Origin: Octopus vulgaris
Taxonomy: Eukaryota
Length of the DNA stretch: 64,000 bases
Assembly: GCA_951406725.2 (NCBI GenBank)
Contig: OX597819.1
Span: forward strand, 109,988,001 to 110,052,000
Reading direction: 5' to 3'
Made by a program: the position numbers and the translations under genes. Positions within the stretch are counted from its first letter, which is position 1. Every line of letters starts with the position of its first letter. A model generated the notes under the pieces. It was not told the origin of the DNA and did not search any database. It saw only the letters and a list, made by a program, of their open reading frames with translations. Shown one piece after another: positions 23,071 to 34,172 of this stretch.

Positions 23071-23148
23071 GTTTGGACTCGTCATTTATTTACGTAATGC
23101 GTGGAGATGACACAAGGGTGAATGATCTAGTTGCCGTCTTTGATATTT
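23071..23148 (+). CDS. BCR/ABR-like gene, exon e (RhoGAP arginine-finger region, Arg absent)
   Basis: Pyrimidine tract plus cgaag| and donor |gtaagt; 78 nt, phase 1-1. Encodes (G)LDSSFIYVMRGDDTRVNDLVAVFDI, compare [25 protein letters not shown]. Confidence 0.85.
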
Positions 23149-23299
23149 GTAAGTATTAGAATATCAAGTGAAGCGCCCTTCTTTGTTTTTAAATTAATCT
23201 GTTCTTCCAGTGTTGCTAATGCTGCTTCTGCTTTCGTTGCTGTTGTTGTTTTTACACACGGCAATGGTACAAAATGGTAGCATTGTAAAATTGTTGATT

Positions 23300-23871
23300 G
23301 GTTTGTTGCTATATTGAAACACTGCACGCAAATGCTCCGAGGCTTCTGTGTTGTAGGTACTGCCTTGTAAAGCCTCTTCTCCTTATCTCCTCAAAGACAT
23401 ACAGCATCTCGAAAGAGTCCAGAAGCTGGCTACCCGCATGGTTCATGGTCTCAAAAATTTGTCCTACGAAGAAAGGCTGAGGACGCTCGACCTTTATTCT
23501 CTTGAAAAACGCCGCCGCCGTGGTGATCTCATTCTCGCCCACAACATCATAAGCGGAAAGTGTAACCTCTCGAAAGAGCTGTTCTTCACTCCTGCTCCAG
23601 AGCGTCGGCTGCGGGGTCATTCCGAAAAGCTCTACCTGCGACGATTTCATCTCAATCGAAGGAGAGGAGCTTTCTCCGTCCGGGTTGCGGATCCGTGGAA
23701 CAAGCTGCCAGACGAGATGGTGAAGATGCCGACAACCGCTTTGTTCAAAGCCTCCCTTGACCTCAAGTGGCCTGAACTCTTTACATGATCACTACCCTGT
23801 ACTTAACTCCATGTCCCCCTACATGGTCTTGCTATTTGCTTTTGAGCCAAATTAACTAACTAACTAACTAA
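23300..23871 (+). mobile_element. CR1-type LINE 3' fragment
   Basis: Open ORF2 C-terminus (LERVQKLATRMVHGLKNLSYEERLRTLDLYSLEKRRRRGDLI...FSVRVADPWNKLP), short 3' UTR and (AACT)n tail. Confidence 0.9.
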
Positions 23872-24418
23872 CACCCTACCTTCCAAAGAGAGAAAAAAAA
23901 TAATTTCCCGTTCAAATGACCCATACCGTAAGAACTTAATTTAACGCTCTACGTTCTATTTTTTCTGTTGTGTAAACCCAAGACAGCTCTCGTTGATAAA
24001 AGGCGTTCCATCCATAAACACCATGTCTTTTTCTTTCAAGTGGTCTGCTTAAAAGGAGACGGAAACACTGTATAATGTATGTAGTGCATCAGTCTCCCTT
24101 TAAGGAGGTAGTATAATTTGAAAAAAGATTTAATTGCTGTCTTTAGCGGACGTGAAGAGATCCTCTTGTTTGTATATTACTATAATCAATTGAAATACGT
24201 TTATAAGTTTCTACAATAAAATTAGCTAATGCAACGATAAAGTAGCCAAAATTTACTTCAGAACTTCTCAAGAAATGATTATATCAAAGTTATCATTCTT
24301 TCTTATCATAGCAAACTAATATTTAACAGTTGATGAAACAGGTCACCCAGGTGTTCCCTGAATTTGAATGATATTAAGATGCCCAACTATTATATCGAAA
24401 GAACGAATATTGTAAGTT

Positions 24419-24822
24419 ATTCTCTTCTACTCTAGACACAAGGCCCAAAGTTTTGGGGGAACGGGACCAATCGATTAGATCGACCCCAGTACGCAGCTAG
24501 TATTAAATTTATCTACTCCAAAAGGATGAAAGGCAAAGTCGACCTCGGCGGAATTTGAACTCAGAACGTAAAGACAGATATAATACCTATTTTTGTCCTA
24601 CCCACAAGGGGCTAAACACAGAGAGGACAAACAAGGACAGACAAACGGATTAAGTCGATTATATCGACCCCAGTGCGTAACTTGTACTTATTTAATGGAC
24701 CCCGAAAGGATGAAAGGCAAAGTCGACCTCGGCGGAATTTTAAACTCAGAACGTAACGGCAGACGAAATAGGGCTACGCATTTCGCCCGGCGTGCTAACG
24801 TTTCTGCCAGCTCACCGCCTTA
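24419..24822 (-). mobile_element. Nested family-A SINE pair
   Basis: Same architecture as 7070-7472, on the minus strand. Confidence 0.85.
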
Positions 24823-26215
24823 AGAGTTTAACTTATTGCCACAGCCATGTTTGTGTGGTAAGAAGTTTATTTCCCAACCATATGGTTTCAGTGTCAATTC
24901 CACTACGTGACACACTGGGCGAGTGTCTTCCACTGTAACCCACGGGCTTGTTTGAGTCGATAAAGTAGCTGGAAACTAAAAGGAGCCCATCGTAAACATA
25001 CATACATACATACATACATGTGTGTGCGCGCGTGCATGCGTGTGCATGCGTGCGTGTGTGTGTGTGTGTATGTGTGTGTGTGTGTGTGTGTGTGTGTGTG
25101 TGTGTGTGTGTGGAATAAAGAAATAGTGTGTGTGTGTGTGTGTGTGTGTGTGTGTGTGTGTGTGCGTGCGTGTATGTGTGTGTGCTCGTATCTGTCCCTC
25201 TCACCGCTTGACAACTGGTGCTATGTTTACGTCTTGGTAACTTAGAACCTCAGCAAAAGAAACCGAAAGCAAAAGTACCATTTTATATAAACAAAAGTCC
25301 TGAGGTCGATTCGTTTGACTGAAGCAAGTAAAAGATAGGTATTGCTAAGGTTTGAACACAATGTTTGTATTCTCCAAATTAGGCATGACTGTGTGGTTAA
25401 GAAATTAATTTCAGAACTACGTGTCTTCGGGTTCGAATCGCATTGCGCCGTATCATCAGCTACTGTCTTCTAGAATATGCTTTGGGTCGATGAAGGCCTT
25501 GTAAATGAAATTTGTTAGGCTGTGTGGAAGTCTGTCGGCAGGATTGTTATTATTTTTGGAATGGTGCGATTCAACAACACCTCTAACTCTTGGATTTCTG
25601 TAGTGGATTCCACGTGTCGAAATCCATCGAGGTAGGTCTCCAGCCTGAAAATCACTTGTTCCTTTTCTCTCGCCAGTTACAGAAGTACTGAAAATGAGCA
25701 TTGTCGCTGTATTTTAATCTTTGGTCAAATAATAAAAAAAAACGGGCTTCTTTCAGTTTCCGTCCACCAAATCCACTCACAAGGCTTTGGTCGGCTCGAG
25801 GCTATAGTAGAAGACACTTGCACAAGGTACACAAGGTACCATGCTGTGGGACTGAACCCAGACCTATGTGGTTGAGAAGCAATATTCTTACCACACAGCC
25901 ACTCCTGCGCATATACAATTTGATGGGAATAAAATTGATGGGAAAGGTGAGTTGTATTGATTCCACTATTTGGTTGATACTTATATCTATTCCTCACTCG
26001 GATTTGAAACCAAAACATAGATTTGCTAGGGATCGAACCTTGGGAGTAAACTCATGCGTTTTGTCGAAACGGTATATTTACCGAAGCCCCTGATTTCTGA
26101 TCAGTTTATCATCGTCAGGCTATGTTGATAAGTTATCTAAGAGTTTATAATTAATATATCCTAATCACAATAATGTGTCTGTTTCTTCATTAATGTCTTT
26201 CTGTTTCATCCTCAG

Positions 26216-32168: not shown

Positions 32169-32370
32169 ATTTATTATATAGAAGGAGCTTCTACAGGACT
32201 AGAACTGTTTCATTCAAGAGAAATCTTCAGGAAGCTTCCTGAAGATTTCTCTTGAATGAAACAGTTCTAGTCCTGTAGAAGCTCCTTCTATATAATAAAT
32301 TAATTTTACTCTGCTATGTATTTAGTACCTTATTTACTGTGGTTAACCCCGAATCAACCCGGGACCTACA
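32169..32370 (+). mobile_element. Perfect 132-bp palindrome (32169-32300) plus tail, between (TA)n tracts
   Basis: Spacer-less palindrome centred on AAG|CTT at 32234/32235. Confidence 0.85.
32233..32283 (+). ncRNA. Type-I hammerhead ribozyme motif (mirror copy 32186-32236 on -)
   Basis: agcttc CTGAAGA t ttc tctt gaa t GAAA cag ttctagtc ctg TA gaagct. Six-bp stem I; stem II has a U-U closing mismatch. Confidence 0.75.
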
Positions 32371-32430
32371 TATATATATATATATATATATATATATATA
32401 TATATATATATATATATATATATATATATA

Positions 32431-33647
32431 CAGGGGTTGGACAAAATAATGGAAACACCTTCAAATTTCAAATAACTTAATTTTAATATCGGGTAGGACC
32501 ACCATTGGTAGTAATTACAGCTTCGATTCTACGAGGTATGAATTGTTTCCAAAGGAATTTTTGACCATTCCTCAGTTAAAACAGTCTCCAGTTCTTGTAG
32601 TGATGATGGTGGAGGATATCGACTCCTTACTTGTTTTCCTAAAATGCACCATAAATGTTCAATAGTATTGAGATCTGGGAACTGTGGTGGCCAGATAAGA
32701 TGTTCAACTTCACTAGAATGTTCCTCGTGCCATTCAGTAACAACTTTAGCTGTGTGAATTGGTGCATTATCATCCTGAAAGATTGCGTTTCACTTCAGAA
32801 ACAGTTCCGCAACTATAGCATGAATTTGATCAGATAAAATGCTTAAATAGTCTTGACTATTAATTCTCCTATGAAGGGGAAGCATTGGGCTGGCGGATTT
32901 CCAAGATATAGAAGGATCATCACAGATCCTCCTCTGTGTTTAACAGTTGGAAGAAGGTAGTCTGGGTCAAATGCTTCGTTTGGCTGTCTCCACACGTATA
33001 CGCGGCCGGTGATCGGAAATACGGTAAACGATGACTCGTCCGAGAAAGTGATATTCTTCCACTGCTCTAGGGACCAATTCTGTATGTTTTTATTCCACAC
33101 CAAACGCTTCGCAACGTTTGTTTTTGAAAGTAGTGGCTTTCTGATTGCAGCCCACCCGTGAAACCCGGCCTTGAAACCCGAAGTGGTTATTAAGCTCTGC
33201 AGTAATTTTGGGAGCTATACTTTTGTGATCCTTTCTAACAAGTCGCTTAAGAATCCGACGGTCCCTATCTGAAAGTTTTGGTTTTATTTCGGAGTTTTGT
33301 TTCAGCGAGGATATTTTTTCCTCTTTCTCAAAGGCTGTCATTACTTTCGAAACAGTACTACTTGATACACCAAACATTTCGGCTGTTTTCGTTACGCTAA
33401 TGCCTGCCATACGAGCACCAATAATTGGACCTCTTTGAAAGTCCGATAGATTTGTCATATTAATGAATTTTAATTGTCTTTTTCTGATGTTATCTAAAAA
33501 GAAACAGCAGTTTTAGCAAAACATATTAAGCAACACTAATAATAAATCAAAAAACATAAAAATAAAAAAGCATTTGACGGTTTTATTGATATTTCAAAAT
33601 TATGATGCTATGACGCTAGGTGTTTCCATTATTTTGTCCAGCCCCTG
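32431..33647 (-). mobile_element. Tc1-family DNA transposon, disrupted transposase
   Basis: 30-bp TIRs with 1 mismatch (CAGGGG[T/C]TGGACAAAATAATGGAAACACCT) and TA on both sides. ORF pieces LSDFQRGPIIGAR (HTH) and ITFSDESSF...TVKHRGGSVM. Confidence 0.92.
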
Positions 33648-33976
33648 TAAATATACACACATACATATTGTTCTACAAATAAAATTGCTTTATGTAATAT
33701 ATATATATATATATATATATATAATGCTTCTATATATGTTTCTTTCTTTACGTTTCTGTATCTATGTTGGCATGTACACACATAAGTGGTTACATGCACA
33801 CAGATCTACTACCTAGGCAATTAAACTTAGAAGGATACAATACACTTAGACATATACACTTGCCAACTGTTTGATAAACAGATATACGTATCAATATTTC
33901 TCTTCTTCCCATAATCAGTCGCGTGTTACTAATGTTATGCTATTTTTCTATTTTTTATTTCCATGGTCTTTGGCAG

Positions 33977-34172
33977 AGTGTGTCTGAACGAACCGAGAAA
34001 CCGAGTGACGCCCACCATAATGGGTGGCATATTTAGCCCTGTAATCCTCGACTCAGATGTGACGTTGACTCTCGAGGAGTACATGAGAAAACGGAATCAT
34101 TTCGCCAGCATCTTGAAATGTATGATAGAACTCAAACTGCAAGGCTATAAACTTGATAATACTCAAACATGA
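33977..34172 (+). CDS. BCR/ABR-like gene, terminal coding exon h
   Basis: Acceptor ctttggcag|, phase-2 entry. Encodes VCLNEPRNRVTPTIMGGIFSPVILDS...KLDNTQT with TGA at 34170-34172; compare [24 protein letters not shown]. Confidence 0.85.

Follow-up and report, generated by a model that had tools for sequence, protein, structure and literature searches.

A RhoGAP domain that lacks its arginine finger raises the question of whether the protein carrying it can still promote GTP hydrolysis, binds its GTPase without hydrolysis, serves another end or is simply decaying. Such a domain is encoded in the stretch of Octopus vulgaris DNA analyzed here (64,000 nucleotides of contig OX597819.1, assembly GCA_951406725.2, positions 109,988,001 to 110,052,000; hereafter, the window), a repeat-rich piece of animal DNA in which a first-pass annotation, made from the sequence alone, had pointed out four exons of a candidate pseudo-GTPase-activating protein (pseudo-GAP). 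On balance, we favor the reading that the gene in question, here termed gene A, encodes a catalytically dead, folded scaffold derived from the BCR/ABR proteins, found only in octopods in the material analyzed, the working surface of which would lie elsewhere than on the GTPase face.

Gene A comprises eight exons in the window, which splice into a sequence of 333 residues, the same as residues 37-369 of P0001, an Octopus sinensis protein of 369 amino acids labeled 'active breakpoint cluster region-related protein-like' and the sole protein retrieved with the last exon. In P0001 a C2 domain precedes the RhoGAP domain, which matches PF00620 with an E-value of 1.4e-22 (80.6 bits, against a cut-off of 24.5). 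As the first-pass annotation had it, its four exons have AG/GT borders and an intact frame, which extends without interruption to a fifth, the first GAP exon. This exon had been overlooked, as had a second copy of the gene in the same window and three upstream exons, which code for the C2 domain and linker of P0001 according to tblastn searches with this protein and with the O. vulgaris model P0005. The latter is 100% identical to gene A over the C2 exon, and its upstream region contains a PH domain below the Pfam cut-off and only a short stretch resembling the end of a DH domain; further 5' exons of gene A, encoding the PH domain, presumably lie before the start of the window. The public gene models disagree on the 5' end of the gene. 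Those of Octopus bimaculoides (P0002, P0153 and P0154) and P0005 end at intron read-through, be it after GAP exon 4, the finger exon or the C2 exon, and the truncated models are probably annotation or assembly artefacts.

Four of the 24 listed sequencing runs were compared with positions 22990-23340 of the window. Each of them holds one contig exactly over the finger exon (23069-23151, with junction overhangs), the loose ends of which match the end of the first GAP exon and the start of the third, and the intron beside the finger exon has no contig cover except for one low-complexity patch. Junction letters without intron cover are the pattern of spliced RNA and the finger exon is spliced, though no run is recorded as RNA for certain. 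Run X1 presents no non-reference letter in this exon and runs X2 and X9 one each, which cannot turn the valine codon GTA into an arginine codon because two changes are needed. Run X4 stems from a relative, with three differences in the finger exon (one placed, synonymous) and loose ends encoding residues of P0002, the finger position of which is Ile; over some 143 coding letters a hand count yields three synonymous, three non-synonymous and two unplaced differences, too few to be of use. The last exon is present in part in 11 of the 24 runs, none of them recorded as RNA, and the other 13 have next to none of it. Since neither such blanks nor the contig depths of the four runs (5.9, 3.9, 401 and 486) can rank expression, tissue restriction is only a lead. 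As a finger-less RhoGAP fold encoded by an intact, spliced gene, gene A fits the pseudo-RhoGAP class, which is a functional class and not a clade.

Catalytic and binding residues of the RhoGAP domain

The finger motif of gene A, FIYVMRG, aligns in phmmer searches with the GIYRVSG or GLYRVSG of ARHGAP15 and both chimaerins and with the finger loop of GRAF. The register is unambiguous because this alignment is free of gaps, and Val207 falls on the finger Arg, in agreement with the first-pass annotation. Over 160 aligned RhoGAP domains the finger column holds Arg in 146, Lys in two and other residues in 12, ten of the latter corresponding to the octopod family described here, isoforms included. 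Two unrelated RhoGAP proteins in the same alignment, P0113 (2061 aa) and P0061 (627 aa), have Leu and Phe at the finger and are further candidate pseudo-GAPs.

In p50RhoGAP numbering, the defining pair of the RhoGAP domain has been given as Arg282 and Lys319, and the binding determinants as Arg323, Asn391, Val394 and Pro398 (PMC8305018), to which another paper adds a Gly, located three residues ahead of the finger, and the NKM-motif Met (PMC8918327); both residue lists go back to Amin et al. 2016 and are given here after these papers. The interface with the GTPase has been described as three patches (PMC12240320). Our curated alignment consists of 24 rows of our own choosing (six of the octopod family, four cephalopod-type ABRs and 14 other BCR/ABR proteins), and the 18 canonical rows all present Arg, Lys, Arg and Asn at the four key sites. 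The finger Arg and the Lys are absent from the six family rows, and the interface Asn from all five that have the last exon. The finger is replaced by Val, Ile and Val in the three gene A rows, by Ile in gene B and by Leu in gene C, two paralogs introduced below. At the Lys319 site the window sequence of gene A has Thr248 and the remaining family rows Thr, Leu, Leu, Leu and Met; at the Asn391 site it has Ile319, and the four others with the exon Ile, Ala, Ala and Ser. The first-pass annotation had listed both of these replacements, and their codons (ACG and ATA) are present as such in the sequence. The sites of Arg323 and Pro398 are kept in gene A as Arg252 and Pro326, taken by Lys and by Ser or Ala in gene B, and by Leu and Tyr in gene C. 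Gene A has also lost the Gly three residues before the finger. Of the published key residues, gene A retains just two unchanged, the second Arg and the Pro, and genes B and C none. Within gene A, Arg252 is kept in all three rows, and Asn313, a basic residue 314 and Pro326 in two, those with the last exon. More broadly, the octopod family keeps 18-21 of 42 near-invariant canonical GAP sites. Those kept by all its members are mostly Gly, Pro, Cys, aromatic residues and Leu, which we read as the core of the fold, and the sites that no member retains include those of the finger loop, the Lys and Glu of the KxYxRELPE helix and the interface Asn. Residue 225, the codon of which is split between 23148 and 26216, is Cys in place of a near-invariant Asn in all six family rows, a conserved residue peculiar to the family.

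The suggestion that the Arg two residues downstream of the finger (Arg209) might act as a substitute finds no backing among the relatives of gene A: the column reads Gln in the Argonauta ortholog, Lys in gene B, Pro in gene C and Ser in all 18 canonical rows, so Arg209 is no conserved substitute finger. Adenosine-to-inosine editing could convert residue 207 only to another Val codon (GTG), as had been anticipated, residue 248 only to Ala and residue 319 to Val or Met. An alternative exon encoding GIYR, named in the first-pass annotation as a possible objection, was not found in the window. A profile of 44 canonical finger regions run over its six frames gave a best E-value of 0.8, in a search without a positive control that scored the true gene B exon at 15, and none of the ten window matches of a finger-motif scan lies on the forward strand within the gene A introns of 18793-26215.

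With finger, Lys and Asn all absent, GAP activity of the gene A protein is very unlikely on the established mechanism (PMC8305018), and by the same residues, three of those that define the group, the protein falls outside the active RhoGAPs. The view of a catalytically disarmed domain would thus extend from the gene in which it was put forward to the whole family, all rows of which lack finger and Lys. The remaining possibility of a weak but real GAP, in which Arg209 or a finger-independent stabilization of the switch regions would modestly speed hydrolysis, is the least likely of the readings considered here: Arg209 is present in gene A of O. sinensis and O. bimaculoides, with Lys in its place in gene B, and a finger-less RhoGAP can form a transition-state-analog complex (PMC5575484), but the Gln of Argonauta and the Pro of gene C speak against it, no indel shifts the register of the loop in either the phmmer or the curated alignment, and the switch-holding Lys and Asn are gone too.

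An AlphaFold2 model from a 50-row alignment (mean predicted local distance difference test score, 84.7) presents a beta-sandwich at residues 17-139 and a helical domain at residues 164-365. RhoGAP domains come first in Foldseek and VIA-align comparisons, N-chimaerin (2osa) reaching Z 25.8 with a root mean square deviation of 1.9 A over 192 residues; many other RhoGAPs lie within 2 Z units of this match, and for the N-terminal part C2 domains come up at Z ~15. The model is biased towards the canonical fold because the alignment contained 44 canonical ABRs. A homodimer prediction for residues 163-366, in which the alignment was not used, scored 0.00 and 0.00 and weighs neither way, and phmmer retrieved nothing significant among PDB sequences with GAP exon 3 alone.

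Descent from BCR/ABR and the neighboring copies

Outside the octopod family, the best full-length matches of gene A are BCR/ABR proteins (RhoGEF-PH-C2-RhoGAP), with E-values down to 1.7e-22 over C2 and GAP. Among the library matches examined, only the family itself and P0007 rank above them. The latter, a protein of 1004 aa from the wasp Leptopilina heterotoma, starts with what resembles a signal peptide, carries four nearly identical RhoGAP repeats of intact finger and may be a venom protein. The family is monophyletic in both trees (100/100), on a very long stem (2.35 changes per site) and without a settled place among the ABRs; the approximately unbiased (AU) test does not reject a sister position to cephalopod ABR (p 0.22). 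A two-residue insertion in the GAP domain is common to the six family rows and the four cephalopod-type ABRs, two of which were assigned to this group by the tree, and is lacking in the 14 other rows; one protein outside the 24-row set has a one-residue insertion at the same site. Given the shared insertion, the AU result and the unsettled placement, we infer, without regarding it as proven, that the family arose by local duplication of a cephalopod ABR. Judged by its sequence relationships, gene A is probably BCR/ABR by descent and not by function, one of three duplicates, a kinship that the first-pass annotation had not recognized. An origin from SYDE proteins was also considered, and was rejected on the grounds that the C2_SYDE match of the gene A C2 domain is weak (E-values of 0.005 and 0.039, below cut-off) and that the closest relatives and upstream domains are those of BCR/ABR.

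The second finger-less copy in the window, gene B, lies tail-to-tail with gene A at a distance of 11.4 kb, on the reverse strand (62767-45617), with an open frame, canonical splice sites and GAP exons of the same four lengths. Its GAP part is identical to that of O. sinensis P0155 (743 aa), which combines a degenerate RhoGEF domain (E-value of 2.2e-7, versus 1.6e-24 in the parent), an aligned PH-like region, C2 and RhoGAP; the DH, PH and C2 exons of gene B presumably lie beyond the end of the window. In the DH domain of P0155 the KP[VI] motif is without its Lys, and gene B may encode a dead guanine nucleotide exchange factor (GEF) besides a dead GAP. In O. bimaculoides we find gene A (P0002/P0153), gene B (P0004) and gene C (P0006/P0156/P0157), the last seen only in this species, and for each of these genes the longest contig given in the NCBI models is the same, of 117,080,279 bp. 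One gene C model, P0156, repeats the first GAP exon, which is probably an artefact. The Argonauta hians gene A (P0003) also lacks finger and Lys. Identity between the paralogs A, B and C in the GAP part is 34-41%. Intact ABRs with all four key residues are present in O. sinensis (P0177) and Argonauta (P0035), and P0177 is listed on the same 120,472,873-bp O. sinensis contig as genes A and B. These two ABRs, together with P0178 and P0179, all have Gln for the otherwise invariant Pro of FGP and KPI[GS]QL in place of the DH motif KP[VI]xR[VIL]. No further family member was seen among the best 150 of 1235 representative matches or in another search that gave five matches; because the coverage of squid and cuttlefish proteomes is uncertain, this does not establish a restriction to octopods.

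Table 1. Exons and key codons of genes A and B, in window coordinates
Feature	Position	Strand	Basis
Gene A exon, C2 domain (BCR/ABR type)	4999..5210	+	tblastn with P0001/P0005, splice borders, open-frame identity, modeled beta-sandwich
Gene A exon, C2 domain	7537..7602	+	tblastn, splice borders, open-frame identity
Gene A exon, C2 end, linker and start of RhoGAP fold	12432..12580	+	tblastn, splice borders, open-frame identity
Gene A RhoGAP exon 1, 62 bp	18731..18792	+	junction of its 3' end with the finger exon seen in 4/4 runs
Gene A RhoGAP exon 2, 78 bp, finger loop	23071..23148	+	spliced contig over exon in 4/4 runs
Val207 (GTA), arginine-finger position	23094..23096	+	sequence, phmmer alignment, curated alignment
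Arg209, 'shifted Arg', Gln/Lys/Pro in relatives	23100..23102	+	sequence, curated alignment
Gene A RhoGAP exon 3, 135 bp, with the two-residue insertion common to cephalopod ABR	26216..26350	+	sequence, alignment
Thr248 (ACG) for conserved Lys	26284-26286	+	sequence, alignment
Arg252, retained	26296-26298	+	sequence, alignment
Gene A RhoGAP exon 4, 106 bp	27439..27544	+	AG/GT borders, open frame
Gene A last exon, to stop; Pro326 retained	33977..34172	+	sequence, borders, alignment
Ile319 (ATA) for interface Asn	34017-34019	+	sequence, alignment
Gene B exon, C2 end and start of RhoGAP fold	62658..62767	-	tblastn, splice and open-frame check
Gene B RhoGAP exon 1, 62 bp	60049..60110	-	sequence
Gene B RhoGAP exon 2, 78 bp; finger position Ile (ATT, 58154-58152)	58100..58177	-	sequence
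Gene B RhoGAP exon 3, 135 bp; conserved Lys to Leu, following Arg to Lys	54091..54225	-	sequence, alignment
Gene B RhoGAP exon 4, 106 bp	47995..48100	-	sequence
Gene B last exon, to stop; interface Asn to Ala, Pro to Ser	45617..45806	-	sequence, alignment

Several mobile elements are interspersed with these genes. A LINE-like retroelement, broken into several open reading frames, lies between them on the forward strand (38432-43336; GC content of 48%, versus ~38% around it) and includes a reverse transcriptase match (PF00078, E-value of 1.7e-29) in 40518-42293. The last intron of gene A holds a decayed transposase of Tc1/mariner type on the reverse strand (32529-33512), with HTH_23, HTH_Tnp_Tc3_2 and DDE_3 matches. 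Two further open reading frames, 28929-29393 and 23357-23788, have no Pfam match at an E-value of 0.001; we take them to be transposase-like and retroelement-like, respectively. Fold-back stretches (long inverted repeats), seen by eye only, at 8098-8630, 30250-30780, 32205-32290 and 58380-58730 are likely to be non-autonomous DNA transposons.

Scaffold, GTPase binder or decaying duplicate

The losses besides the finger matter for GTPase binding because a RhoGAP deprived of nothing but its finger can still form a complex (PMC5575484). From the finger loop, the K/R helix and the C-terminal N/P segment, 26 positions were assigned by motif to a GTPase face. Three canonical controls match the octopus ABR at 17-18 of these positions and at 36-40% elsewhere (p 0.008-0.017), while genes A, B and C match it at only seven, six and six, with 25-32% elsewhere (p 0.5-0.8). 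Between Octopus and Argonauta, the face of gene A is identical at 17 of 26 positions, and the rest at 87 of 143 (p 0.83). With most determinants lost and the excess conservation of the face gone, binding of a GTPase by the gene A protein appears doubtful. The first-pass annotation had proposed a GTPase-binding or scaffold protein, of which the scaffold now fits better.

Our favored scaffold reading would start with the local duplication of a cephalopod ABR. The long stem branch would reflect a copy freed from catalytic constraint, with the parent keeping the GAP work. The PH and C2 domains would target the protein to the membrane or to a partner, and the helical GAP fold would be used as a protein-interaction or spacer module, much like that of ARHGAP36 or p85. 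The gene A product would then likely be unable to stimulate GTP hydrolysis and act as a structural scaffold, rather than as a tight binder of Rho GTPases. A number of observations weigh against this proposal. We chose the face positions ourselves, from motifs and without coordinates, so that part of the excess seen in the controls follows from this choice. Four face residues of gene A (Arg252, Asn313, basic 314 and Pro326) survive in both genera, and finger-less RhoGAPs can bind GTPases, as described for SYD-1 (PMC4398414) and OCRL (PMC8305018). The tree does not place the family beside cephalopod ABR, a position that the AU test only fails to reject. Moreover, between Octopus and Argonauta gene A differs at 150 of 345 positions, versus 28 of 342 in the parent, a roughly fivefold faster divergence; its GAP domain is 60% identical, versus 94% for the parent, and no better conserved than its C2 domain (56%). 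Finally, neutral divergence over these 150 differences would give at least 7.8 stop codons and none is seen (P0 0.0004), but this argument for constraint carries a bias, since an open frame is what gene models are selected for. The scaffold reading and its rivals overlap in part, and the confidence granted to each is not meant to sum to a whole.

Foremost among the rivals is a pseudo-GAP that would bind Rac/Cdc42-GTP without hydrolysis, as an effector, a decoy or a shield against the parent ABR. We regard it as a tentative possibility, in line with the predicted integrity of fold and groove, with the four surviving face residues just named, with the ability of a p50RhoGAP finger mutant to complex RhoA (PMC5575484) and with the precedents of SYD-1 with MIG-2 in Caenorhabditis elegans and of OCRL with Rac1. 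The loss of Lys, Asn and Gly in gene A, of the Pro as well in genes B and C and of the second Arg in gene C runs counter to it, as does a face that is conserved no more than the rest of the domain, either against the octopus ABR or within gene A.

A quite unlikely alternative is that the former catalytic groove has turned into a hydrophobic site at which a new partner docks, be it the protein itself, a paralog or a non-GTPase protein. Three of 21 GAP columns charged in at least 80% of canonical rows have turned hydrophobic in all three paralogs, namely the finger Arg (Val, Ile or Leu), Lys219 (Val, Ile, Tyr or Met) and Lys248 (Thr or Leu in gene A, Leu and Met in the others), the last being counted for gene A through the Leu of Argonauta, since O. 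sinensis has Thr. In parallel, the face has a mean hydropathy of -0.5 to +0.3 in full-length family rows, up from -0.6 to -1.1 in the canonical ones. Against such a dock, gene A shows no better conservation of the new face than of its other positions (p 0.83), residue 219 may lie off the face, and a hydrophobic fill-in may merely stabilize an unused groove. We find unlikely, if slightly less so, a broader scenario in which octopods hold a private family of three genes, with a dead GAP in all and a dead GEF in at least gene B, the groove of which now serves as a hydrophobic dock and the products of which, restricted to certain tissues, inhibit or re-route the parent ABR/Rac pathway. If true, such a private, disarmed family with a re-purposed groove would represent a pseudoenzyme born beside an active parent and regulating it.

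We give little credence to the notion that the copies are transcribed but decaying duplicates of little or no function, drifting under relaxed selection. The fivefold divergence of gene A relative to the parent would suit it, and so would the disagreement of 5' ends and the models that stop early, P0005 after the C2 exon and those of O. bimaculoides at exon 4; however, the truncated models end exactly at intron read-through, presumably a common artefact of annotation. Both window genes have open frames and canonical splice sites, and all three paralogs, for all their divergence in the GAP part, retain open frames and core residues. Furthermore, between O. sinensis and O. bimaculoides the GAP domain of gene A is far better conserved (133 of 140 identical) than its C2 domain (97 of 123; p 1e-4). 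That gene A is not a simple pseudogene is supported by its being intact and spliced.

Public annotation labels these genes as ordinary 'BCR/ABR-like' ones, by which the octopus would be wrongly credited with additional active RhoGAPs. Three diverged copies and an active parent on the same contig offer a natural series for asking what a RhoGAP fold serves without catalysis and, probably, without GTPase binding, and the family constitutes a candidate octopod-specific signaling novelty.

Relation to BCR/ABR and to known inactive RhoGAP proteins

We found no description of this octopod family in open-licence main texts, although supplements of genome papers may list the genes. Its closest point of reference is BCR/ABR itself (DH-PH-C2-RhoGAP, as in P0177 and P0035), with which it shares the order of C2 and RhoGAP, a putative PH domain upstream in gene A (P0005, below cut-off), a degenerate DH domain with a PH-like region in gene B (P0155) and the two-residue insertion of cephalopod ABR. 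The family differs from this parent in that it is only 23-34% identical to it over C2 and GAP, in the loss of finger, Lys and Asn, in the lack of any model with a long N-terminal region and in the degenerate DH domain of gene B (E-value of 2e-7 versus 2e-24).

A second comparison is provided by C. elegans SYD-1, which has Val at the finger position. SYD-1 (PDZ-C2-RhoGAP-like) has been described as having a RhoGAP-like domain without two critical residues and no detectable GAP activity, and has been proposed to act as a scaffold (PMC4398414). As in gene A, its C2 domain adjoins the RhoGAP-like domain. Unlike SYD-1, the gene models of the octopod family show no PDZ domain in Pfam scans. The two are of independent origin, SYD-1 belonging to the SYDE lineage and not to BCR/ABR, and SYD-1 binds GTP-bound MIG-2, whereas the sequence of gene A argues against binding.

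Loss of the finger and loss of binding determinants are both known elsewhere, and p85 retains an arginine at the finger. The BH domain of p85 alpha and beta has been reported as inactive through loss of Arg323, Asn391, Val394 and Pro398, in p50 numbering (PMC8305018), a source that names the residues around the finger as lost; of these four, gene A keeps the Arg and the Pro and genes B and C none exactly, but the octopod proteins lose both the finger and binding determinants. Human finger-less, inactive RhoGAPs listed in the same source comprise ARHGAP36, OCRL1, INPP5B (there INPP5P), DEPDC1/1B (there DEP1/DEP2) and FAM13B (PMC8305018), and in ARHGAP36 the inactivating mutations and functional GAP-domain residues have been located away from the GTPase site (PMC8128262). 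Like the octopod proteins, they present a RhoGAP fold without a finger, although in other domain contexts and with other ancestries, whereas the octopod genes form an apparently lineage-restricted cluster of three by an active parent. Finger-less RhoGAPs are hence a known class, of which the octopod family, probably derived from BCR/ABR, is an independent origin.

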